Source: Eledone cirrhosa (taxonomy: Eukaryota). From it: a stretch of DNA of 64,000 nucleotides. Within the stretch, counting starts at the first letter, position 1. Every line of letters starts with the position of its first letter. The notes under the pieces were generated by a model. It searched no databases. It saw only the letters and a list, made by a program, of their open reading frames with translations, and had not been told where the DNA came from. The translations under genes were made by a program, and so were the position numbers. The stretch covers positions 19,902,001-19,966,000 of the forward strand of contig OZ024747.1 of the NCBI GenBank assembly GCA_964016885.1, in the 5' to 3' direction. Below are positions 7,955 through 64,000 of this stretch, piece by piece.

Positions 7955-9770
7955 TTGTAGGGGACTGTACCACCCTTAGGGTACCTATCTATCTGGGTTA
8001 CGGGTTGGGGGGAAGGGGGGGAAACTATAGTCTAGGTGAGGGTTGCGTGATATATGTTACGTCTATGTGCTAGGTTTAAAATAGAAGAAGGAACTCAGGA
8101 TTTTGTGTTGGCAAGAGGAGAAAATTTCCGATTTCCTGTTAAGCAGGTTCAGTTTAGAGTGTATTATGACATGGCATTCCAGTAAACACAGGTCACAACT
8201 TCCGCTCTGCGGTCGGTATGGCGTGGATCTAGTAAGCTTCCTCCAAAAAAGTTTGTATGGGTACTATTATTTTTTAAAAAGGAGATGTATCCCGCCAGTG
8301 AGGTGGCATTCTTATGTCTATCGTGTCTAAATGTGTACATATGCGCGTTAAATCTAGTTTTAAATGTATTGGACGTTGCTCCTATATATGTTTTGGTAGA
8401 GTTGTGTGTGGTTACGTCACATGCATATACTATGTTTTTCATGAGACAATCCCCTCTCAGGGGACAGTTACTACTCCGCCTACAATTGCAACTGCGGGTT
8501 CTATTAGTTAACTTACCTCCCGAAGTTTGGTTACTAGCATTATCACTAGGTGCCTCTATATCATTAGATGGCTCATTGATGCTATTATGTTGCCCATTTT
8601 CCAGTGTAGTCGGTTGCTGGTGGTTGACTGCCATTTTAATTGCTTCGAAGCCTTCCCTAGTTTTCCTAATGTTCGTGCGTGCTAGGTGTGATGCGAGGTT
8701 AGGTGTGGTCGAATAGGATAATTTAATTACGTTTTTGTTAATTATGTTGCGATATCTATTGCCTGGTGGGAAGTTTTTTCCAATAATGAGAAGAATACTC
8801 TGGGAGGTTAGTGAGGACCTCAGAGTTAAAAGGTGGGTTAAAATACATGTTTTTCCTTCTTCTATTTTTCTTATCTGTGGGGTGAGTCTCGCTACTGTGC
8901 GTACTATTTTGTAGGGTTCCGTTATTAACATTAGTGGCGTTGTCTGTTTTGCTTAAGCCCGGATGATTTATATTCATGGCGTGATCATTTACTGTTTTAG
9001 AGTTGTGGTGAGGGACTCTAGTATTGTCTTTACGTGGTTTACATTTAGCTGGGTTACCGCCATTAGGGTTCTTACTATTATTCTTGCCTCTAAGTTGGTT
9101 AGGCGTTGTGGCCATACTATGTGTGATTATGTTGGTAGGTTTCACACTCATGGTTTGAGAGTCCTTATGTATATATGATAATCTACTCCCGTAACCAGAT
9201 TCTGCTAGGGCCTTGTCATAATACTCTGCATTGGAGTTGAAGATACTCTCATTACAGGACAGTATACTAATTCTATTAGAGACCCCCTTGGGAATAGCGT
9301 TTAGGACTGATTTGGGGTGGTTAGAGCTGGCGTTTACATATGTTAGTCTATCGTTAGGTTTATGGTAGGGTGCAAATGTTTTACTTTCTAGGTCAAATCA
9401 ACAGACAGCGAAAGACGCGTTCCGAGTTGTCCGACAGACAACCTTTTCCCCCACCCCGGAAAAAACACCAGTTGATGGATGTGAATCCGAAATATATAGG
9501 GACTATTAAATCTCTCCCAAGGTAACTCTCTCTCTTGTGTTGTTATTATTATTTTTATTCTTTTACTCTTCCCTTCATTCTACACATCTCACACATCTTA
9601 TACACACCACCCATCTCAACGTACACCCACTTACATATCTCTCTCTCCACCACCGGACCTTGTTACCCGGAGATTTACCCATTTGCATTGTCGAGGCTTC
9701 CAAACGACCTATAAATATTTACTTATTGTTCCACAATGCTTCAAGCAAACTTCAATACTCTCTTATACAT
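7955..9770 (-). mobile_element. Penelope-like element 1, 5'-truncated, with a probable inverted terminal segment at about 9400-9770
   Basis: Coding remnant 8063-9397 homologous to the two other PLEs in the window; bounded by (CA)n and (TA)n. Confidence 0.85.
8063..9397 (-). pseudogene. PLE polyprotein C-terminus: RT thumb, Cys linker and GIY-YIG endonuclease, frameshifted
   Basis: Manual translation gives PYHKPNDRLTYVNASSNHPKSV, MYFNPPF, KLSYSTTPNL, CNCRRSSNCPLRGDC, NIVY..TYIGATSNTFKTRFNAH and CDLCLLE..LLNRKSEIFSSCQH; frameshifts near 8800 and 8250. Confidence 0.9.
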
Positions 9771-9786
9771 ATATATATATATATAT

Positions 9787-10192
9787 AATTAGAAAATATA
9801 TAGCTTTCACCGTATATTTGACTAAAGGAATTTTAGCTTGATAACGGGGTTTAGAACCTTCAGATAAATGGAAAAAGATGAGTATTGACGTACATGGGAG
9901 TCGAACCCACATCTATGGTTATCGCGACCACTGTGCTACCATTACACCAACACATCACACAAAGTAAAATATTTTACTTTGTGTGATGTGTTGGTGTAAT
10001 GGTAGCACAGTGGTCGCGATAACCACAGATGTGGGTTCGACTCCCATGTACGTCAATACTCATCTTTTTCCATTTATCTGAGGGTTCTAAACCCCGTTAT
10101 CAAGCTAAAATTCCTTTAGTCAAAAATACGGTGAAAGCTATATATTTTCTAATTTCAAACTCGCTCACTGTTTCAAAACATACTTACTTGCC
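9787..10192 (+). mobile_element. Family T: zero-spacer palindrome (arms 9787-9970 / 9971-10154) plus unpaired 3' tail 10155-10192, within (TA)n
   Basis: Centre AAAGTAAAAT|ATTTTACTTT; 3 mismatches seen between the 184-bp arms; second copy at 58399-58662. Confidence 0.9.
9985..10055 (+). tRNA. tRNA-like cloverleaf (nominal anticodon CGA, non-canonical loop); probably a tRNA-derived module, not a decoding tRNA; mirror copy at 9886-9956 (-)
   Basis: Acceptor GATGTGT/GTACGTC (3 G-U), D stem GTGT/GCAC, anticodon stem GTGGT/ACCAC with loop CGCGATA, T stem GTGGG/CCCAT with TTCGACT; A box TGGTGTAATGG, B box GGTTCGACTCC; T5 at 10065-10069. Confidence 0.75.
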
Positions 10193-10209
10193 ATATATAT
10201 ATATATACA

Positions 10210-10357
<148 letters not shown>

Positions 10358-10404
10358 TACATATATACATATATATATATATACATATATATATACATAT
10401 ATAC

Positions 10405-10513
<109 letters not shown>

Positions 10514-10659
10514 TATATATATATATATAAGGGAGAGAATTGGGAGTGTGTAACACTCCACTTATCAAATAGGCAGTATATGGTTAGCTCAATGTCAGAG
10601 GACAGAGCCGTAATACAATTAACAACAAAGAGCGCTTAGAACATAGGTATATCTTTAAT

Positions 10660-10705
10660 TGCTAACAGTGTTTCGTCCACACTAGAAGTGGGACTCTTCA
10701 GAGCA
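10660..10705 (-). ncRNA. Minimal type I hammerhead ribozyme, intact core
   Basis: Minus strand: tgct CTGAAGA gtcc cacttctagtgt ggac GAAAC act GTT agca. Confidence 0.8.
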
Positions 10706-10928
10706 TAAAGAGTAAATACATAGTATACAAGCATTGACAAAGCCAAAACAGAAGAATATATGTGGGGCTACCATAAGTTGGGAGGAGTTTAAAGAGTAAA
10801 GTAAAAGGAGTAAAATAAGAAAAGAGTAAAATTAAAATAAACATAAAAATAAGAATACACTAATACAAATAAGAATACACTAATACAAATAACATATCAT
10901 AGACGGATGGGCACAAGTTAAGAGATAG

Positions 10929-12077: not shown

Positions 12078-12320
12078 GTGTATATATATATATGAGTATA
12101 TATATATATATACATATATATATATGAAAACGGAGAAAAAGACGATTATTAGGAAGAAAAATATATTTTTTACCCTTTTTATTTTCTCTCTCTTTTTTCT
12201 GGGTCAGAAAATGATTAAAATGAAATATTTTACTTTGTGTGAAGTGTTAAGGTATTGGTTGATTTATTTATTAATTAACAATGGCATATATTTATGTATT
12301 TATATATTTAATAATTGTCT

Positions 12321-12355
12321 ATTACCGGTTTCAGCATTTTTATGCATTATCAAAT
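12321..12355 (-). ncRNA. Minimal hammerhead-like motif with U3-A8 core variant, in a (TA)n-adjacent element at about 12125-12420
   Basis: Minus strand: at TTGATAA t gcat aaaa atgc t GAAAC CG GTA at; stem I only 2 bp. Confidence 0.5.
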
Positions 12356-13112
12356 GATAATAATATGTATTGGTGTAAAATGGTGGTGTTGGACATGTTA
12401 AAGAAATGGTGCAGAAATGGTGTGTGTGTGTGTGTGTTAGTGTGTGTGGGTGTGTGTGTGTAAGTATTTACGTATAGCATACTTTTCTTTCATGAAATCG
12501 CAATTTTGGCTACATGTATTTTTATGACGAGTGTACATACCGTCATTATTCTAGAGGCATAATCAGTCATCTCTATTTCTTGCTAAATATCATATGATGT
12601 AATTCTTTACTGAATATGTGTTGGGAAGTTTTACTACTATAAACACCTTGGAAACAATACTGTAAAAAGAAAATTCAGGCCCATATCAGTTGATTTGGGA
12701 ATTTGAACATCAACGAACGTAGTTTTGCTAACAGATAATATTTTTATTTTTATTTTAAATGAGTGTGTGTGTATTTTTATATTTCCAAATCCAAATGACT
12801 TTCACTTTAACACAAACAAGGAATAATCATTTTTTCTCTTTTACTTTTTATGCCAGAGCCTCGAGCATTGTTTAGCAGGATTTAATTATATTTTACAATT
12901 CTCCTATTGGCAAGAGCAAACATGTATTTCTATCGACTCCATAGCATGTCCTTACCGACCACATACTCGTCCATTTATTCATCGCCGATACTATCCCAAA
13001 ATATGGTTATATTTCTGGTCAACAGCCAAAATATTCCATGCAATATTCATAAAGACATACGCACGTGTGTGTATCTTAAAATAGTATATACACCGTATGT
13101 CTAACTGCAATG

Positions 13113-22578: not shown

Positions 22579-22711
<133 letters not shown>

Positions 22712-23490
22712 GGATGAATATAAAATGAAAGTGCTTTTGTTAAAAAAGGGATTTATTAGGTATTGACATATGTTTCTGTAACAGACCGAATACCTATGTA
22801 TCGCTGCTTGCGTAATCATATAATGTTAGCAAGTATTCGATAGCAAATGTATAATCAGTTGTCACTTCTTCAGAGATTTTGGATAAACTGGATAAAATCA
22901 GAAAAATTTAAGTATTTATATTAGTAAAAGAGGAAGGAACAGAGGGGATAGAATATGACAGATGGTAAAATAATTTACTGCTAAACAAGTATATAATGGG
23001 TTTTTAATGAGAATACCATGAGTAAATCTAAATAAGAATTTTGGGAGTGCCGATTTTAATCTCTACTTGACCAACTGGACAGTGGACAGGGCTGGTCATT
23101 TGGTGCAGTAGTATTAATCATAAAGTGTCAATTGGGGAAGGGGGAGATTTCGATTACTACTAAATAACATCAATGCTAGTAGTCAGCTGGTATTTGCACT
23201 AGGGAATTGAATCAAGAAATCAGAAATCTCATTTTATCTATAGCAGTTTGTATTAAAAGGTAAATAATAGAAGAGTTGATAGAATTAAGACTAATAAAGA
23301 ATGTTCATATCTATTTTGACAATCAAACGGGGATAGAGACAGGCGTTCAATCCTGGTAGTACTTATAATATGAAAATGTAGATTTTAAGCGATGGTTACA
23401 GTATAACGATCGCTCTATTCTGTTATTTAATAAAATGTTTTTGGATTTCATAATACAAAATAATTCCACATTACATAATTTACAAAATTC

Positions 23491-24507
23491 CCTAGAAATG
23501 TTTCTCTTAGAATCTCCCGCCTATCGTCCAACCAACAAACCTTCAAAGAACATGCCGAGTATTATGATGATGCACTTAGGAAAGCCGGTCACCTAGATAA
23601 TATAGAGTATATAGTCAATGATCACCAAAACACCCAAAATAAATCACATAGGAGTAGAAATAGCACAGAATCACCACCATACATACACTACCGCAATAGA
23701 CACAATAATAGTCGCACACCACCAAACAGAAGGCGATGTAAGGAGTATATCTGGTACAACCCGGTCTATAACAAATCTATTAAAACCAATCTACCCTCAA
23801 AATTCTTTCGATTAGTTAGAAAACACTTTCCAACATCACATAAATATAATAAAATCTTAAACCCTAACACCATCCGACTTTCATATTCAACCGCCCCTAA
23901 TATTGAACAACATATAAAAATGCTTAACGCAAAACGGTTGTATAAACGCCTTCCAACACATAACAATACACGTAAAACATTAGCTATAACATCACAAAAC
24001 AACAAACAACATCCTGTCCTACATAAGCAACCTCATCAACCCATCCATGGCAATACAACAACGCAAAATTGTAATTGCAACTGTGTCCAACCAGGAATGT
24101 GTCCGTTGAACAATCAGTGTCTTGAACGCAACATCGTATACAAATGTACTATCGAATCGGATAGACAGAAGTGGTACTATGTGGGATCTACAGCCACCTC
24201 CTTTAAATCACGCCTTTATAGACATCGTTATTCGATAAAACATGAAAACCAGCGTTATGTAACAACACTCGCAGACAAGGCTTGGCAGCTGCGTGAAAAT
24301 AACCAACAATTTCACCTAAAATGGGATATAATAGCGGCTGCCCCCCCATAATCCAATGGACAGGAATTTTGTAAATTATGTAATGTGGAATTATTTTGTA
24401 TTATGAAATCCAAAAACATTTTATTAAATAACAGAATAGAGCGATCGTTATACTGTAACCATCGCTTAAAATCTACATTTTCATATTATAAGTACTACCA
24501 GGATTGA
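23491..24507 (+). pseudogene. PLE RT thumb plus GIY-YIG endonuclease, 5'-truncated, with one premature stop (TAA 24349-24351)
   Basis: RISRLSSNQQTFKEHAEYYDDALRKAG, YIWYNPVY, IRLSYSTAPN, CNCVQPGMCPLNNQC, NIVYKC..YYVGSTATSFKSRLYRH; the frame continues past the stop to CKLCNVE..LLNNR..CNH. Confidence 0.9.
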
Positions 24508-25057
24508 ACGCCTGTCTCTATCCCCGTTTGATTGTCAAAATAGATATGAACATTCTTTATTAGTCTTAATTCTATCAACTCTTCTATTATTTACCTTTTA
24601 ATACAAACTGCTATAGATAAAATGAGATTTCTGATTTCTTGATTCAATTCCCTAGTGCAAATACCAGCTGACTACTAGCATTGATGTTATTTAGTAGTAA
24701 TCGAAATCTCCCCCTTCCCCAATTGACACTTTATGATTAATACTACTGCACCAAATGACCAGCCCTGTCCACTGTCCAGTTGGTCAAGTAGAGATTAAAA
24801 TCGGCACTCCCAAAATTCTTATTTAGATTTACTCATGGTATTCTCATTAAAAACCCATTATATACTTGTTTAGCAGTAAATTATTTTACCATCTGTCATA
24901 TTCTATCCCCTCTGTTCCTTCCTCTTTTACTAATATAAATACTTAAATTTTTCTGATTTTATCCAGTTTATCCAAAATCTCTGAAGAAGTGACAACTGAT
25001 TATACATTTGCTATCGAATACTTGCTAACATTATATGATTACGCAAGCAGCGATACA

Positions 25058-25097
25058 TAGGTATTCGGTCTGTTACAGAAACATATGTCAATACCTA
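25058..25097 (+). ncRNA. Atypical shortened-core hammerhead-like motif; mirror copy at 22757-22796 (-)
   Basis: taggtatt CGGTCTGTTACA GAAAC ATAT GTC aataccta: perfect 8-bp stem I and canonical 3' half, no CUGANGA. Confidence 0.5.
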
Positions 25098-25899
25098 ATA
25101 AATCCCTTTTTTAACAAAAGCACTTTCATTTTATATTCATCCTTTCTACATTTCTCCGGAATATAATTTATACTCGTTGAGCAAACCTGCACGTACGCTG
25201 TTCATCTCTAACGTAACGATATATTATCACTACATTATTGATAACCTGAAATTTTATATATATATATATATATATATACATATATACTATACCTGTATGT
25301 ATGTATATATATATAAATATGTGTGTGTGTGTGGGTGTATGTATATATGTGTGTGCATGTATATATATAAATATGTGTGTGTGCATGTATAAACGTATAT
25401 AAACAGATAACATTTATTATTTTTCGCTGACGTCACTTAGATGAATATCACACCTGCGTTTATAGAGAATTGAAAATGAGACAAGGCAATTTTCTCATGG
25501 GTATTAAAGCATAAATAATTAATAAGTTTTCGACCACGAATCTACACCCCATCACAGAAATATATGGCATTCAATATATATCAACTTTAATGTTTAACAT
25601 ATAAAAGAGGAAATAGGTTGTGAATCATAACATAATTGAAATTATATGATGTAATATTTCTCAAAAGTATTTACTGCATAATTAATGTGAATTAATCAAA
25701 AGTATTTACTGCATAATTAATGTTAATATTTTATAATTTAATATTTAGATACATCTATAGACTTGAACAAGAATTTTAATTTGTTTTTCGGAATCTGTCT
25801 TCATATACCATCTGATGAATACAATGTGATTCTGTTTCCAGTCCCATGATTCAGCAGACATATTCAATCTAACTGCTTGCAGTGTGCAATTATATATAT

Positions 25900-39016: not shown

Positions 39017-42000
39017 GTTCTTCTGGTTTTATAATTTCCCAAAGTTTTACCAATAGAGAGAGAGTCGATTTCTAACATAGACACAAGACTCTCTCATTAG
39101 AATTTACACATCAACTAGGTAGATATGTATGTATGCATGCATGTGTAGATATGGATGTTATTGTATGTGTGGATGTGGATGTTTTGAGTTGTATGTGTGC
39201 ATGTGTATATGCTTTGCATCTGTATATGTGTATATGCAGTTATTAGATGCAACATTTTTGGAATGTTTTACATATTTTTACTGTTTCATTAATGGATTGT
39301 ACTTGTAATTTCCTAACTAGTTGTGTTTTTTCTGTTCCTGTGAAGCCTAGTTTCTCAAGATTTGTATTCAGGCAGTTACTAACATATCCCAGTGCCCCAA
39401 TAATCACAGGCATAAATCTGAAGGTGTAATCAGGGTGGAGTATCGGCAGATTTCTCATCACTTCTGCATAAATGTTCTACTTTTCACTAATCTTTGATAT
39501 TATATTGGCATCTGCTGGGCAGCTAATTTCCACTACTGTGCATGCTTTCTTCTCCCTGTCCCATATCATAATATCTGGTCTGATTTGCCTGCATTTTATT
39601 GGTGTTTTTACTGGAACATTCCACCAGTACTCTTTCATATTATGTACATGGATCTCTTCCACATTGCTGTAGCTTTTAATGTGCTTATTATCGGGGCTAT
39701 CTTTTTTACGAACTGCATTGTACAGTGTTTTGGCCACTACATCATGCCTCATAGGTAGATAGTACCGCGATGACATCTTTGGACAGCTGCTGATGACATG
39801 GGTGATATCCTCGATGTTAGTTCTGCAGAGTCTGCACTTGTTATCACATCTAGGTCTTTTGTCTGCATCCCTATCTCTTTTGTGAATCAGGTTTTTCGTG
39901 TTAATCTCCTGTTCCTGGATTGAAAAACCGTATCCTTCAAAGTGGGAGCCAATATAGCGGTTGTTGGTCCAAGATAGACTACTTTCCTTATCTATATTAC
40001 TCTCACTCTGGAGCTTCCTGGCAACATATCCATGCATAAATTTTTGCTGATAGGCATGCAGCTTCTCATCCAAGGATTCACTGCGATACTGCTGAGTGAC
40101 ATCCCTGGGTGTGAGTTTTTGATTATCAGACAGGGAATATCTCTCGAGGAGTTATTTCCCAACTCTCATGATCTTATCTGTTTCATGCAGATAGACTTGC
40201 TCGAGAAACGGGCTCCTACGCTTCGAGGTTCGTAGATGTTGTCGGAGAGATATGATGCGGCATTCAAATGTTGTCTGGACAGATGTTAGGCCTCTGCCTC
40301 CCTGCTTACGTTTCAAGTAAAGGCGGTCTATGTCACTGTTGATGTAGAAGTTTCCGGTGTTGTTCAGTATTTTTCGAGTTCCAACATCAACTGCTCGGAT
40401 TTCGTCTATCGTCCAATTGAGTATTCCAAACGTTGGTGTTAGGACAGGCACAGCAAACACATTGTGAGCCACTGTTTTGTTTTGCGCAGAAAGTTCCGAT
40501 GGCCAGATCTTTCTTAATCGGGTGTAGTATTCCCTGGTTACGCGTTCTTTATTACAGATACCATTATAGGATATGTTCTCATCTATCCCCAGATATCTGT
40601 AGCAGTCATCATCAGATATCGGTGAAACAGTTAGGCCATTGATGACAATGTTGCTAGATTGGGTTGTTGTTCTTCCCGCTTTACAGTAATGTATGAGCAT
40701 TTATCTTGGCCATTCCTATATCCTTTGAGAACGTTGTAACCAGGTCAAGATTTTTCTTCAGATCGTCCACAAAGAAATTATGGGTTAGGTTCGTATTTAT
40801 GTCCTCCTGTGAGCCAATAATGTATCCCTCACATTTCTTGAGCAGAAAGGACAGGGGCTTTAATGACAAGATGAATAATATCACAGAGAGACTGTCCCCC
40901 TGAAATATACCCCTGCAATATTTTATTTTATCAGTGAAAATAGAGTCCTACCTCTCTGTCTTTAACCTTAGGATAGTAGCCCAAGAAGAAGACAGCCTCT
41001 CTATGGCTCTGACAATAATGTCTGGGACTTTAGCAAGTTGGAGGGCCTCTATCATCCAAGAGTGGGGAACAGAATCGAAAGCTTTCCTGTAGTCCAGCCA
41101 GACTGTAGTCATATTCCTCCTAAGTTGTCGTACCTCCGACATCGCAATTTTGTTGTTCAGCACATCCCCAAACCCCATTCTTTCCTGCTGCTTGTTCATC
41201 TGTGATGATGTTATTATTTTCCCAGTGATCTTCGAGGAATAGGTTCAGGCAGTCTGTATACATCTTATACATCAGGTTCTGGCATGCAATGGGTCGGCAG
41301 TTTTCTGCCAAGTGGGTGTCTTTGTTCTTGGGGACCAGTAATGTTTGTGCTAATGTCAACCACTCTGGTATAAGTGTATCTCCCTTAAGAACTTGTTGGT
41401 AGAGGTCAGTAAGATACCTCCGATAGAATATCAGTTTTTTGTACCAGTAGCCGACAATCATGTCTCTTCCTCGTGTATTCTTATCTTGGAGTTTTCCTAT
41501 CACAGTCTCAAGGGTACCCTCACTTATTTCGTATGTTTTTGTTGTTGTGTAGGAGCAATAGTTCTTTCGGATTTCTCTTAGCCACAGTGCATCTTGGTTG
41601 AAATTATTCTTCTCACCCCATATTTTGCTCCAAAAGGAATCTATGTCTTTCTGGGACGGGGCCTCAGTGACACTTATTATTTTGCCCTTCATATCTCTAT
41701 AGACTGATGTTTGGTTTCGTCTCAATCTTTTATTAAGCACTTTTCTCTCTTAACCTTCTTCAGGTATCGGCGTTTTTCGCTAACAGCTCTCAATTCTTGT
41801 TTGAGGCTGATCAGCTTATATTGGAGAGTTCTGGCTTTACTGTTACCAAACATCGTCTCTATTTTATTTTTCACTTTTTGTTGGTGAGGAGTGAGGTTTT
41901 TTTGTGTTTGTTTGCATGTAAGGAGCATTGTCACATATCCTATGTTTTTTCGTAGGTTATCAATCTTTTTTTCTATTTTAGTTATATATGATGGTATTTT

Positions 42001-58345: not shown

Positions 58346-58398
<53 letters not shown>

Positions 58399-58400
<2 letters not shown>

Positions 58401-58662
58401 AGTAAGTATGTTTTGAAACAGTGAGCAGGTTTGAAATTTGAAAATAGAATAGCTTTCACCGTATTTTTGACTAAAGGAATTTTAGTCTGATAAATGGGGT
58501 TTAGAACCCTCAGATAAATGGAAAAGGTGAGTATTGAAGTACATGTACTTCAATACTCACCTTTTTCCATTTATCTGAGGGTTCTAAACCCCATTTATCA
58601 GGCTAAAATTCCTTTAGTCAAAAATACGGTGAAAGCTATTCTATTTTCTAATTTCAAACCTG
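58399..58662 (-). mobile_element. Family T second copy: zero-spacer palindrome (58426-58543 / 58544-58662) plus tail 58399-58425
   Basis: Centre GAAGTACA|TGTACTTC; homologous to 10046-10190. Confidence 0.9.
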
Positions 58663-59277: not shown

Positions 59278-61037
59278 TGTGTGTGTGTGTGCGTGTGTGT
59301 GTGTGTGGGTGTGTATGTGTGTGTGTATGTGTGTGTATGTACATACAAACGGCTATTTAAATATAACATAAACTATATGTGAGTAATGTTTTTATTTAAC
59401 ACCTTATATATATATATATTATATATATATATATATATATACAATATTAAATAAATGGAAACTATATTTATAAAACCATATTTATTTCATTATATATATT
59501 TCGGGGATATCATATTACCATATGCTATGCCTTCCTCAGACAAAATACAATATAAACAGTTTTATAGATAAATAGATTCGACATACCGTTATAACACCGA
59601 CTTCCATTTGAAGAGGTTTAAGCTGGCAGTGAAAAAATTTTACACAGAGAGAAAGAAAGAGAGAAAGAAAGAGAGAAAAAAGAAAGAAAGACAGAAAACG
59701 AAGAAAAGGAAGAAAAAGAAGAAATGCATGGAACAAAATAGAGAGATGAAAAGATAGATAAAGCGAAGAACTTCATGTAAAGAAACAGAAAGAGATATAT
59801 ATATATAGAGAGAGAGGAAATAGAGATAAATACATATATATATATAGAAAATTAGGTAGTGGGAGGTCATTTTGAGTAAATGTATCAATGATACATTTAT
59901 TTATTTATTTATTTATTTAGCTCAAGTATTAATGTAAGGGAGATATATATAGAGAGAAAAAAATATATAGAGAGAAAAAATAGCGAGAGAAAAAAAATTT
60001 AAAAATAGCCAGATATATTCGAGGCGTAAAAACCCTATGTTTTAATGTATTAGTATTTATAAAACTTACATTATATTGTAAATATCAGTATTCCTGAATG
60101 AGACAAGTATCCATAGTGTGTGAAAATTAATTATCTTATGTTTAGTTTTTTTAAAAAATTCATATGTTTATGTGACAGCTACAAACATCCATGCGAATCC
60201 ACATGATTCACTCTGCAAACTCTAAGTTCACGGAAAACATTCTCAATGTGGTATAAAAATTTGAGCATACATATATGTGTATTATTATTCCTGTCTTTAC
60301 TCTACAAGATTATCTATCAAGCAGAAATAGAGAGCAGATTTCAATATACTAATAAAATATATATCAGAAACAAAACTAAAAAAATAAAAAGATAACAATA
60401 ATAATAATAAGTAAAAATAAGTAATAATAAAATAGAAAACTAAAAAAATATTACGAAAGAATATTACATAATAAAAATATTACATATTAAAAAATATTAC
60501 GTATTAAAAAATATTACGTATTAAAAATTTACATATTAAAGATATTAAAAATAAAAATAAAAATAAAAATAAAAATAAAAATAAAAATAAAAATAAAAAT
60601 AAAAATAAAAATAAAAAATATTATAAAATATATTATAAAATACTACAATAATAAAAGATAAAAATAAAAATAAACCACAAAGATCAACCCTTCAAAGTTA
60701 ATTGACAATATATTGCCAAGTTCATTACAAGACAAAGCCAAAAATTATCTATCAAATCACATCTAGCAAAGATCATTTCAAAAAGTTTATGACGTCCAAT
60801 TTGGTCTACATATGTTCTTATATTTAATATAGAAGTTTATCTAGTGTAAGGTTTATTCAAAATAATTGGAGCATCAGCTTTTAGGGTAGCTTAATTTTTC
60901 ATGAGGAATGTTTAAATAAAAATAAATATAAAATAAAAATAAACAATAAAAAAAGAATAAAAAGAAGGAATCAAAAATTTAGGAATCAAAAATTTATCGG
61001 CTAGTTTCCCATATAAATATAAATCAAACTAAATATA

Positions 61038-62338
61038 CTACATTTTAAATTTAAATTTATATTTAAACGTTGAGTTTAATCTATGTTTGCAACAACTGAA
61101 TAAATTTGTCCGTAGGTTAAGGGAATTTTTAGATTTTAGTATAAAGAATATCTCCTCTGTGCAGAGGTCACATGTCTCAGAGGATGAATTAAAAGGAATC
61201 CCTCTTGAGACTATATTCCAAGCCGTCGAATATCTAACGTTATCTAGCTTAAGTTGCCAGAGTACGCCTGATAGTGCCGTTGAAGATTTTTTACTTGGAT
61301 CCGTGAAAGAATTCTTGTGGTTATTATAGCGAAGTTTAAATTCCGTCGATGTGGAACCGACGTAGTTAAAAGAATTAGAGTCAGTATTAACATTACAATT
61401 GTATACTATATTTTTAACTAAGCAGTTGTTATTTAACGGACATTTAGATCTATCTCTACAGTTACATTTGTTAACTTGTATATTATTTATGCTATTATCA
61501 CTAGGTTTTAAGTTCCTATTATTTATTCTATTAATATTTTGTGCTAAATTTTTGGTGGATGAGTAGGTTAATTTAATTGTATGCCTATTGAAAATTGAGT
61601 GATACCTATGTGTTCTAGGGAAGCGATTATCAAGAGCTTTGAAAAATAATTTAGCGATGTGGGTTTTAATGTTTAGTGAGAAGGGGGGGGGGGGCAAACC
61701 AAATTATGTTCCTAGTTCTATTTCTTTTTTGGCCTTTGGAATTATTGTAATGCTTTCTATTATAGTTGTTAATGTTGTTGCCGTAATTAAAAAAGTTGTT
61801 ACTTTGTTTAGTTTGTCTATCATTATCTATGTACACAATCTTATCAGCATATCCTGCCCTAGCTAATGCTTCATTATAGTATTGGGCCTTTTCGTCGAAA
61901 ATCTTTCTATTCGACGAGATCCTAGAGATACGTTTTTGAACTGAGTTTACTATAGTGTTTTTGACAGATCTGGGGTGGTTAGAGTTAAAGTTGACATAGT
62001 TTAAGTTTTCATTCAACTTGTGAAAAGGATAGTGGAGACATGTGTTGAGATTTAATGTTATATCTAGGAAATTGACTATTCTATGGTTGTTCTCAATTTC
62101 TATTTTAAGGTTAAAGTAATTAAAAAATTTTGTAATTTGTTTACATTTTCTATTTAGTTCAGGGTTATTATTATTAATAAGTAAAAGCATGTCATCCCTA
62201 TATAAACCTCCGGTAGTACCAGGTATTTTCCTATGTAGCGAATTGATTAAAAATAAGCCCACAAGGTCAGTTACCTGAGCTGAGTCGGAAAATCCCATAG
62301 TTATGTCAAAATTACTATTTCTATCTGCTCTGGTCCAT
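61038..62338 (-). pseudogene. PLE RT (C-terminal motifs and thumb) plus GIY-YIG endonuclease, 5'-truncated, frameshift at the G-run 61683-61694
   Basis: FDITMGFSDSAQVTDLVG, GGLYRDDML, VNFLDITLNL, SNHPRSV, IIWF, CNCRDRSKCPLNNNC, NIVY..NYVGSTSTEFKLRYNNH and CDLCTEE..LNLR..CKH. Confidence 0.93.
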
Positions 62339-63722
62339 AATTTTTGATTCCTTCTTTTTATTCTTTTTTTATTGTTTATTTTTATTTTATATTTATTTTT
62401 ATTTAAACATTCCTCATGAAAAATTAAGCTACCCTAAAAGCTGATGCTCCAATTATTTTGAATAAACCTTACACTAGATAAACTCCTATATTAAATATAA
62501 GAACATATGTAGACCAAATTGGACGTCATAAACTTTTTGAAATGATCTTTGCTAGATGTGATTTGATAGATAATTTTTGGCTTTGTCTTGTAATGAACTT
62601 GGCAATATATTGTCAATTAACTTTGAAGGGTTGATCTTTGTGGTTTATTTTTATTTTTATCTTTTATTATTGTAGTATTTTATAATATATTTTATAATAT
62701 TTTTTATTTTTATTTTTATTTTTAATATCTTTAATATGTAAATTTTTAATACGTAATATTTTTTAATACGTAATATTTTTTAATATGTAATATTTTTATT
62801 ATGTAATATTCTTTCGTAATATTTTTTTAGTTTTCTATTTTATTATTACTTATTTTTACTTATTATTATTATTGTTATCTTTTTATTTTTTTAGTTTTGT
62901 TTCTGATATATATTTTATTAGTATATTGAAATCTGCTCTCTATTTCTGCTTGATAGATAATCTTGTAGAGTAAAGACAGGAATAATAATACACATATATG
63001 TATGCTCAAATTTTTATACCACATTGAGAATGTTTTCCGTGAACTTAGAGTTTGCAGAGTGAATCATGTGGATTCGCATGGATGTTTGTAGCTGTCACAT
63101 AAACATATGAATTTTTTTAAAAAACTAAACATAAGATAATTAATTTTCACACACTATGGATACTTGTCTCATTCAGGAATACTGATATTTACAATATAGT
63201 GTAAGTTTTATAAATACTAATACATTAAAACATAGGGTTTTTACGCCTCGAATATATCTGGCTATTTTTAAATTTTTTTTCTCTCGCTATTTTTTCTCTC
63301 TATATATTTTTTTCTCTCTATATATATCTCCCTTACATTAATACTTGAGCTAAATAAATAAATAAATAAATAAATGTATCATTGATACATTTACTCAAAA
63401 TGACCTCCCACTACCTAATTTTCTATATATATATATGTATTTATCTCTATTTCCTCTCTCTCTCTATATATATATATCTTTCTGTTTCTTTACATGAAGT
63501 TCTTCGCTTTATCTATCTTTTCATCTCTCTATTTTGTTCCATGCATTTCTTCTTTTTCTTCCTTTTCTTCCTTTTCTGTCTTTCTTTCTTTTTTCTCTCT
63601 TTTTTTCTCTCTTTCTTTCTCTCTGTGTAAAATTGCTTCACTGCCAGCTTAAACCTCTTCAAATGGAAGTCGGTGTTATAACGGTATGTCGAATCTATTT
63701 ATCTATAAAACTGTTTATATTG

Positions 63723-63787
63723 TATTTTGTCTGAGGAAGGCATAGCATATGGTAATATGATATCCCCGAAATATATATAATGAAATA
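63723..63787 (+). ncRNA. Type I hammerhead ribozyme in the PLE 3 pseudo-LTR; mirror copy at 59483-59547 (-)
   Basis: tattttgt CTGAGGA agg..catat ggta atatg..ccc GAAA T ATAT ATA atgaaata. Confidence 0.82.
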
Positions 63788-64000
63788 AATATGGTTTTAT
63801 AAATATAGTTTCCATTTATTTAATATTGTAAATATACTCCAAATATTTGTCGAGTGCTTTTATATCAGTTATAAATATTTACTAGTTGTAACCCAACAAT
63901 TTTAAATATAACTTTCCATATATATATATATATATATATATATAAACGATATATGAATATATACCAAATGAATAGCAAATGATATGTAGCATTAGCTCCA

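Follow-up and report, generated by a model that had tools for sequence, protein, structure and literature searches.

Organization of the palindromic copy

Positions 9787-10192 of the window (the whole 64,000-nt stretch of Eledone cirrhosa DNA analysed here) are occupied by a zero-spacer inverted repeat with a tail on one side. The arms, 9787-9970 and 9971-10154, pair at 362 of 368 positions, in agreement with the 368-bp palindrome described in a first-pass annotation of this DNA. Each arm contains a tRNA-like cloverleaf. With the Rfam tRNA model, a score of 44.3 bits (gathering threshold 29) was obtained at 9985-10055 on the plus strand and at 9886-9956 on the minus strand, and ARAGORN called both cloverleaves as tRNA-Ser(CGA); the complete 71-nt cloverleaf noticed earlier was thus recovered by both programs. 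Other details of that description also held: the odd anticodon loop, CGCGATA, is located at 10015-10021, the variable loop has 4 nt and no long variable arm is present, a T5 run follows the cloverleaf, and the tail is confined to the sense arm. Stretches of (TA)n flank the palindrome on both sides. The relevant features of the window are listed below (m, position in the 259-nt family monomer, with the cloverleaf at m1-71; PLE, Penelope-like element).

9764-9786, unstranded: (TA)n target, left side (in the family, (TA)n stands at the tail end of 74/85 insertions)
9787-9958, minus: inverted arm, m170 to m-2, tailless, with the antisense cloverleaf at 9886-9956 (in the family, short ends lie mainly at m157-161 and m169)
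9959-9982, unstranded: foreign 24-nt palindromic centre, not element sequence (the family leader differs; 9967-9986 equals 12223-12242)
9985-10055, plus: tRNA-like cloverleaf, m1-71, Rfam 44.3 bits; A box 9992-10002, B box 10034-10044, A58 at 10040
10058-10075, plus: trailer with T5 at 10065-10069; predicted partner of the 18-nt leader in full monomers, the leader being absent here
10076-10154, plus: body as far as m170, the short 3' end, at which the inverted arm also ends
10155-10192, plus: one-sided tail, 38 nt, m171-208, sense arm only
10193-10529, unstranded: (TA)n target, right side
12128-12400, unstranded: unrelated (TA)n-anchored repeat, likely donor of the foreign centre (1,509 first-look candidates; 40 scored, 94-100%)
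58398-58660, minus: second family copy, a fold-back centred on CATG (m61-64) with the cloverleaf lost, the commonest family form
59434-63917, unstranded: autonomous-type PLE insert, probably of the Hydra clade, with an inverted arm, a hammerhead core at 63731 and a one-sided tail of ~90 nt; same architecture as the element, no sequence shared with it

The window copy comprises 210 nt of the 259-nt monomer and keeps just two bases of the family leader. The segment 9967-9986 is identical to 12223-12242, which lies inside the unrelated (TA)n-anchored repeat; for the 16 foreign bases, 0.0008 chance matches are expected in the window. At the tRNA start the match runs out in a stretch of microhomology, and both arms contain the foreign piece, arranged around a palindrome of 8-10 bp. 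The centre may thus have arisen by templated insertion followed by snap-back. In the first-pass annotation this stretch was taken for a retained 14-nt upstream flank, which was used as an argument against a simple Pol III SINE transcript. Since the stretch is foreign and the family carries a different, conserved 51-nt leader there, that argument fails, and the true leader makes a similar point. The (TA)n in which the body of the element was said to end is target DNA, not part of the element, whose unit is the 259-nt monomer.

Several other features of the window were recorded. The donor repeat at 12128-12400 is abundant, with one end fixed at (TA)n, the other end variable, and inverted arms now and then. 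A second T-arm-like hairpin, possibly an old T-arm duplication, is found in the element body at 10080-10100. A broken PLE ORF (8164-9397, minus strand) lies directly to the left of the palindrome, and a hammerhead core at 10701, within 10530-10720 (minus strand), directly to the right. LINE-like RT fragments are present at 39477-41749 (minus strand).

The element forms a family of tandem and inverted insertions

The genome (3.0 Gb, 1,796 contigs) was searched with a 22-nt tail motif. There were 1,759 exact matches, compared to 0 for the reversed control, and 2,635 matches to a looser, generalised tail pattern. The copies are head-to-tail partial tandems of a 259-nt monomer, which consists of a 51-nt leader, the cloverleaf (m1-71), a body and a tail reaching m208. 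An unselected sample was drawn from the first 100 matches listed, all on contig C1: loci were taken for 96, two others that belonged to the best-hit set being left out; three duplicates were merged and one long array was set aside, leaving 85 insertions.

An inverted arm was present in 54 of the 85 insertions. The tail (37-39 nt) was on exactly one side in 52 of these 54 and on neither side in the other 2. Twenty-five insertions cross the monomer junction into a second monomer. (TA)n was found at the tail end in 74 insertions and on both sides in 62. Ends with the tail were placed at m199-210, and most short ends at m169 (24) or m157-161 (17); the family therefore has two fixed 3' ends, 37-39 nt apart. 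The length of the inverted arm varies between copies. Direct repeats of at least 7 nt flanked 6/85 insertions, compared to a mean of 2.7 (maximum 9) in shuffled pairs, which is no excess of target site duplications (TSDs) over shuffled flanks, TSDs that are shorter or lie within (TA)n being invisible to this comparison. Neither an LTR-internal-LTR form nor LINE-type tails were seen among the 85 insertions. (TA)n flanks, fold-back and TSDs are the features by which the first-pass annotation proposed that copies be scored; a family of mostly non-palindromic copies with LINE tails and TSDs, its stated alternative, is not what the sample contains. The zero-spacer form with a full cloverleaf is a minority outcome, most family copies stopping inside the T arm.

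The array set aside, at C1:131458900-131465830, is 6.8 kb long and holds ~25 diverged monomers, 80-88% identical to the young form; an inverted head borders it on one side and a tailed end in (TA)n on the other. An origin of the fold-backs in genome assembly was considered and rejected, since CATG fold-back joints recur in short-read contigs (three runs of one sample). When the same three runs were compared with locus L005:1480-2320, ~99% of letters at two diagnostic places were those of older subfamilies. That sample thus contains hardly any of the youngest subfamily, a hint that this subfamily spread in a recent, lineage-specific burst.

Subfamilies and an older lineage

Eighty-eight full heads were sorted into five subfamilies of at least nine copies each (2.8-7.8% from their own majority sequence) and one pair. 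The anticodon loop reads CGCGATA, CTGGATA, CATGATA or CATGGTA, depending on the subfamily. The oldest lineage was reached via the D arm of tRNA-Gln and has the D loop of tRNA-Gln in full; its 84 exact anchor matches led to 70 loci. It shows the same two-ended, tailed, tandem or inverted form (inverted in 22/61), with a tail of 45-60 nt, and has T at position 58 in 42 of 47 heads. The A box is conserved in the family, as part of a predicted Pol III promoter whose B box lacks A58 in the oldest lineage. A TATA-like box is found at -35 in the oldest subfamilies, the T58 lineage included.

A still more diverged subfamily (loci L328:1839-2044, L329 and L170) has another anticodon loop and T58; the Rfam tRNA score is 30.5 bits in L328. 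In the window, a one-sided extension (25147-25253) of the PLE insert at 22708-25146 contains two short stretches that by eye resemble the leader start and the tail of an older A58 subfamily; they were not flagged by BLAST.

The tRNA-like cloverleaf is non-decoding and has a predicted fold

The cloverleaf is identical at 42 of 71 positions (59%) to one host tRNA-Gln gene, Gln being the isotype compared, and the D arms are nearly identical. Host tRNA-Gln genes are clustered at C1:168211720-168275586 and C9:34974668-34975239, one of the clusters being arranged in 277-nt tandem units. The window copy has G in place of U33, the anticodon is unstable and the variable loop has 4 nt where tRNA-Ser needs a long arm. 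As the anticodon loop changes between subfamilies, the cloverleaf is not a decoding tRNA. Element copies inflate the tRNA-Ser calls in this genome.

The tRNA is preceded by 18-20 nt that can pair with the 18 nt following it, a stretch that includes T5. A basal helix of 16-18 bp with a 3-nt bulge is predicted under the acceptor stem. Bulge-helix-bulge processing at the leader/trailer junction was considered and dropped, a single bulge being predicted. Folding of leader, cloverleaf and trailer gave negative z-scores in all five copies (-4.6, -3.5, -3.1, -2.0 and -3.7), and the window copy without the leader scored -0.4. Minimum-energy folds contain the basal helix and not the whole cloverleaf.

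Among 37 stem pairs, 13 vary between the five subfamilies. Ten of the 13 change only among Watson-Crick and GU types, including one double change and one T-A to C-G replacement via T-G; in the remaining three, one mismatch becomes a pair and two pairs are broken in one subfamily. When equal numbers of changes were placed at random, few placements preserved as many pairs: p was 0.001-0.04 at 45-67% transitions for comparisons away from or between older subfamilies, and 0.04-0.25 if all changes were transitions (0.22 for young to subfamily 3); since the fold had been drawn from the young form, tests in its direction are biased. In 20 single copies 89.8% of cells pair, and covariation did not exceed that of shuffles (48/500 and 212/500). 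We conclude that these comparisons argue moderately, not strongly, for selection on the structure of the element RNA.

No hammerhead ribozyme is found in the element

No Rfam ribozyme match was obtained in four family loci at E<=1 or in five loci at the gathering threshold, and a loose descriptor found no hammerhead core on the sense strand of five natural tandem copies, consistent with the lack of a clear hammerhead noted earlier. Hammerhead half-cores on the antisense strand were rejected, since none is complete and the subfamilies do not have them in common. Hammerhead cores were found by this type of scan in neighbouring PLEs and in a 310-nt array. This young tandem array, at C3:323447000-323448460 (minus strand), has 310-nt units with a hammerhead core in each and looks like a canonical retrozyme of the same genome; it contains an 11-nt motif of the short 3' end of the tRNA element.

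In PLE pseudo-LTRs and retrozymes a hammerhead is found ~100-140 nt upstream of the sites of priming; in the element this place is taken by the cloverleaf. Its job is most likely that of a promoter and RNA-stabilising fold, which would involve no decoding.

Insertions have the architecture of Penelope-like elements

PLE insertions are described as partial tandems that adjoin an inverted copy, truncated at its 5' end, and carry a tail of 30-40 bp at one end, and (TA)n targeting is attributed to Hydra, Neptune and Naiad PLEs (PMC8557442, available text). The anole PLE nicks both strands of its AT-rich target and primes reverse transcription internally, at two sites that mark the limits of the tail; it does not require cleavage by the hammerhead (PMC11167929). 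The element shows the corresponding features: pseudo-LTR tandems (25/85), an inverted truncated copy (54/85), a one-sided tail and a (TA)n target. With such Penelope-type ends, copying in trans by a PLE is likely.

A genome search with one reverse transcriptase (RT) yielded 45,143 first-look candidates, 149 of which were scored, many with open frames of 738-745 amino acids. In six full-length loci, YxDD and the CxCX5C linker were present in all and DK[TG] in five; hammerhead cores, inverted arms and a ~90-nt one-sided tail in (TA)n were also seen. The RWK motif is absent from the six loci, LWK standing at the likely place. Pfam did not identify the PLE ORFs, their best match being GIY-YIG (E 0.01). 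A C-terminal endonuclease, CxCX5C linker, DKT, hammerhead and (TA)n, the marks of the Hydra clade, are present, and the autonomous PLEs of this genome, as judged from their sequences, probably belong to that clade. Hydra-clade PLEs share with the element (TA)n targeting, an inverted arm and a one-sided tail (PMC8557442, available text). Unlike the element, they are autonomous and hammerhead-bearing, and the sampled family has a 90-nt tail and no sequence in common with it. Abundant and intact in this genome, they are the likeliest source of the enzyme.

A tail-sharing autonomous PLE was not found among 30 RT loci and 4 PLE stretches of the window, nor among the six full-length loci. Twenty-two variant-tail loci, taken from 100 listed of the 2,635 pattern matches, were all family members, belonging to additional subfamilies, with no partner PLE. 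The idea of a tRNA-derived element that uses Penelope machinery, put forward in the first-pass annotation, thus gains from the architecture of 85 insertions and from intact PLEs of the same architecture; the autonomous PLE with the same tail, for which it proposed a search, was not found in the 34 stretches, six full-length loci and 22 variant-tail loci.

Copies break off in the T arm more often when position 58 is A

Each polymerase pass through a monomer was scored from an anchor at ~m115-135. For the A58 subfamilies 118 passes were scored, with the array and three passes of unrelated neighbouring inserts left out. Ninety-six passes reach the tRNA 3' end, and 56 of these stop at m56-71, with a peak at m61-63; nine of the 56 were reassigned from a fold-back alignment artefact, the count being otherwise 47/96. 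None of the 40 remaining passes stops at m44-55, beyond A58. For the T58 lineage, stops at m56-71 were scored in just 6 of 58 passes (p 1e-9). Counted per insertion, the stop is found in 34/48 (A58) and 5/43 (T58). The difference persists in copies without an inverted arm (13/25 vs 4/35, p 0.001), a comparison that controls for loss of old palindromes. The T arms of the two lineages are identical except at positions 58-59. In these comparisons A58 cannot be separated from the age of the lineage or from its partner enzyme, the T58 lineage being older and possibly served by a different one. An apparent second stop cluster at m30-43 was rejected, as nine ends were fold-back alignment artefacts (corrected 9/40 vs 4/47, p 0.08).

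A58 corresponds to m56, so the cluster has its limit where a block by 1-methyladenosine at this position (m1A58) predicts it. Hairpins that resemble a T loop and contain GUUCRA are methylated by TRMT6/61A in RNAs other than tRNA, and the cDNA truncation caused by m1A is imprecise (10.1101/202747); the enzyme is also described as acting on unprocessed pre-tRNA (10.64898/2026.05.17.725798, available part). We infer from these sequence comparisons that the A58-linked break-off would reflect an m1A58 block to reverse transcription. Only four arms reach m56-58, and the peak, 5-7 nt 3' of A58, would need trimming to CATG or TA microhomology. No misincorporation signal was found: A58 is unchanged in 41/41 read-through copies.

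That A58 carries no misincorporation also suits a different explanation, in which the element is PLE-mobilised and the hot spot of 5' ends comes from RNA structure, another partner enzyme or re-mobilised truncated masters, not from m1A58. The peak does lie at the GC-rich base of the T stem and at the CATG palindrome, and 16 of 40 stop-bearing insertions come close to an exact CATG palindrome and might be derived from each other. However, the junctions of the other 24 differ from the exact palindrome, and the T58 lineage, with the same T stem and CATG, stops there in just 6/58 passes. Moreover, the stop occurs in young and old A58 subfamilies alike and in copies without an inverted arm, and it has a sharp limit at m56-57, with 0/40 ends in m44-55. 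We therefore consider this explanation rather unlikely, and the m1A58 block is retained below.

Proposed mechanism and alternatives

The reading we favour, with a probability of roughly two in three, is that the element is a 259-nt non-coding, tRNA-Gln-like, hammerhead-free repeat, copied in trans by the RT/endonuclease of a PLE, and that copying is often arrested by host-placed m1A58. Templates longer than one monomer would be transcribed from tandem copies, some of them probably from the Pol III promoter of the tRNA. The RNA would form a cloverleaf on a long basal helix and be methylated at A58 by TRMT6/61A, creating a polymerase stop. A PLE protein, probably of the Hydra clade, would nick both strands of (TA)n, and two cDNAs would start at m206-208 and m169-170; priming at internal sites is modelled here on the anole PLE in vitro (PMC11167929, available text). 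Head-to-head joining of the cDNAs via microhomology (CATG), or snap-back, would then produce an inverted repeat with one tail. A point against this scheme is the T5 terminator 10 nt past the tRNA, which would have to be read through.

It is decidedly unlikely, in our estimate, that the cloverleaf instead acts as a processing signal in the hammerhead's stead, RNase P (or P and Z) cutting multimers to monomers, which may then be made circular and serve as rolling-circle templates. Monomers in tandem, with a length typical of retrozymes, the 25-unit array with its inverted head and tailed end, and stems that are kept while the anticodon drifts would all suit such processing. So would 5' ends at m-7 to +8, found in 15/36 T58 passes and 5/29 A58 passes (p 0.06), but these suggestive ends fit a Pol III start and an RNase P cut alike. 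Reading through m1 in 24 of 29 A58 passes speaks against processing, as does the basal helix, which may be expected to hinder it at the ends. No ends at m70-76 were found in the A58 set, so RNase Z cleavage left no trace. In a comparison bearing on circular versus linear templates, tandem monomers shared 0/40 private variants and opposite arms 5/121; with so few shared between opposite arms, the tandem-monomer test has no power, and it weighs little against processing. The RNase P/Z substrate considered in the first-pass annotation gains little backing here: 5' ends are missing at the RNase Z site, and the 5' end of the tRNA is read through in most templates. Its companion idea, a tRNA mimic that replaces the ribozyme in a pseudo-LTR, survives as far as the missing hammerhead and the cloverleaf in its place are concerned.

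A SINE of the usual Pol III type, moved by a LINE that targets microsatellites and inverted secondarily, would account for the A and B boxes, the more than 100 copies, the length below 1 kb, the 59% identity to host tRNA-Gln and the TATA-like box at -35 in the oldest subfamilies. It would not account for the pair of fixed 3' ends, of which one side only bears the tail, the inverted duplication of 54/85 insertions, passage into the next monomer in 25/85, a conserved 51-nt leader upstream of the tRNA and the lack of a simple-repeat tail of the element's own. LINE twin priming inverts without duplicating, and the inverted duplication seen here is unlike it. We regard a SINE of this kind as very improbable. 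Hardly tenable, and already disfavoured, is a DNA-level fold-back or satellite repeat (MITE-, Helitron- or satellite-like) with a chance tRNA pseudogene: one satellite-like 6.8-kb array exists and palindromes are common, but fixed 3' ends with variable 5' truncation have the polarity of reverse transcription, inverted-arm length differs from copy to copy, and truncation tracks a single tRNA position.

Relation to known non-autonomous elements

Animal non-LTR retrozymes are non-coding tandem monomers of 150-450 bp with low GC content, proposed to be non-autonomous PLE passengers (PMC7229834 and 10.64898/2026.07.22.740005, available parts). The element resembles them in its low GC content and its tandem non-coding monomers, whose 259 nt fall in this range. 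Unlike it, they carry a type I hammerhead in each unit; having a cloverleaf and no hammerhead, the element falls outside the definition of a retrozyme. The available text of the 2026 retrozyme preprint (10.64898/2026.07.22.740005) does not mention tRNA.

Chlamys MRC1 (PMC8557442, available text) is likewise a non-autonomous PLE passenger with pseudo-LTRs and head-to-tail insertions, from a clade mostly without hammerheads, but Chlamys elements are from green algae and their 3' ends are generally shared with autonomous families. In that text no tRNA-derived part is described for them, its one mention of tRNA concerning selenocysteine. TRIMp3 elements (Helenus, Ajax, Cassandra; PMC10886601, available text) are also non-autonomous, with a piece derived from a Pol III gene in the repeated end and a non-LINE partner. 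In contrast to the element, TRIMp3 have true LTRs, PBS, PPT, 4-5-bp TSDs and a Copia or Gypsy partner, and they conserve promoter boxes only, whereas the element keeps its stems. Penelope is not mentioned in the available text of that paper.

SINEBase defines a SINE as shorter than 1 kb, present in at least 100 copies, at least 60% identical to tRNA over 60 nt, interspersed and non-tandem, with a simple-repeat tail and a LINE partner (PMC3531059, available text). The element lies within the size and copy-number limits, with 259 nt and 1,759 exact tail matches. It shares with the tRNA-derived SINEs of that source a tRNA-derived head, A and B boxes, short length and high copy number; unlike it, they are LINE-dependent and non-tandem, have a simple-repeat tail and lack a leader upstream of the tRNA. 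Given its tandem and inverted form and the absence of a LINE-type end, the element is not a SINE in the SINEBase sense. The annotation of Octopus vulgaris lists 893 recently active unclassified SINE families (PMC13282606, available part), among which the element family could sit unlabelled.

In octopus, the tRNA-derived SINE families OK, OR1 and OR2 were reportedly described by Ohshima and Okada in 1994; the element is set apart from these by description only, not by sequence. Literature searches, outside the repeat catalogues Repbase and Dfam, returned no description of a tRNA-bearing PLE passenger.

Implications

By analogy, the element would work as a ribozyme-free, tRNA-bearing counterpart of animal retrozymes. 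tRNA-derived passengers are known for LINEs (SINEs) and for LTR elements (TRIMp3), and a PLE-dependent counterpart would fill the missing third case. The finding also bears on the role of the hammerhead in PLEs and retrozymes, as a hammerhead-free lineage with a cloverleaf at the corresponding position has undergone repeated amplification. At 259 nt, the element may serve as a minimal substrate for what PLE proteins recognise. The contrast between A58 and T58 is a natural experiment which suggests that RNA modification shapes insertion truncation and that germ-line modification may be read from DNA.

A wider reading is advanced tentatively, at less than even odds: the family would represent a class of PLE parasites in which a selected tRNA mimic replaces the hammerhead and enters the host tRNA pathway (Pol III, TRMT6/61A and possibly RNase P), its copies recording a map of germ-line modification. 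If this is true, thousands of genomic copies would constitute a fossil map of the sites of germ-line RNA modification.
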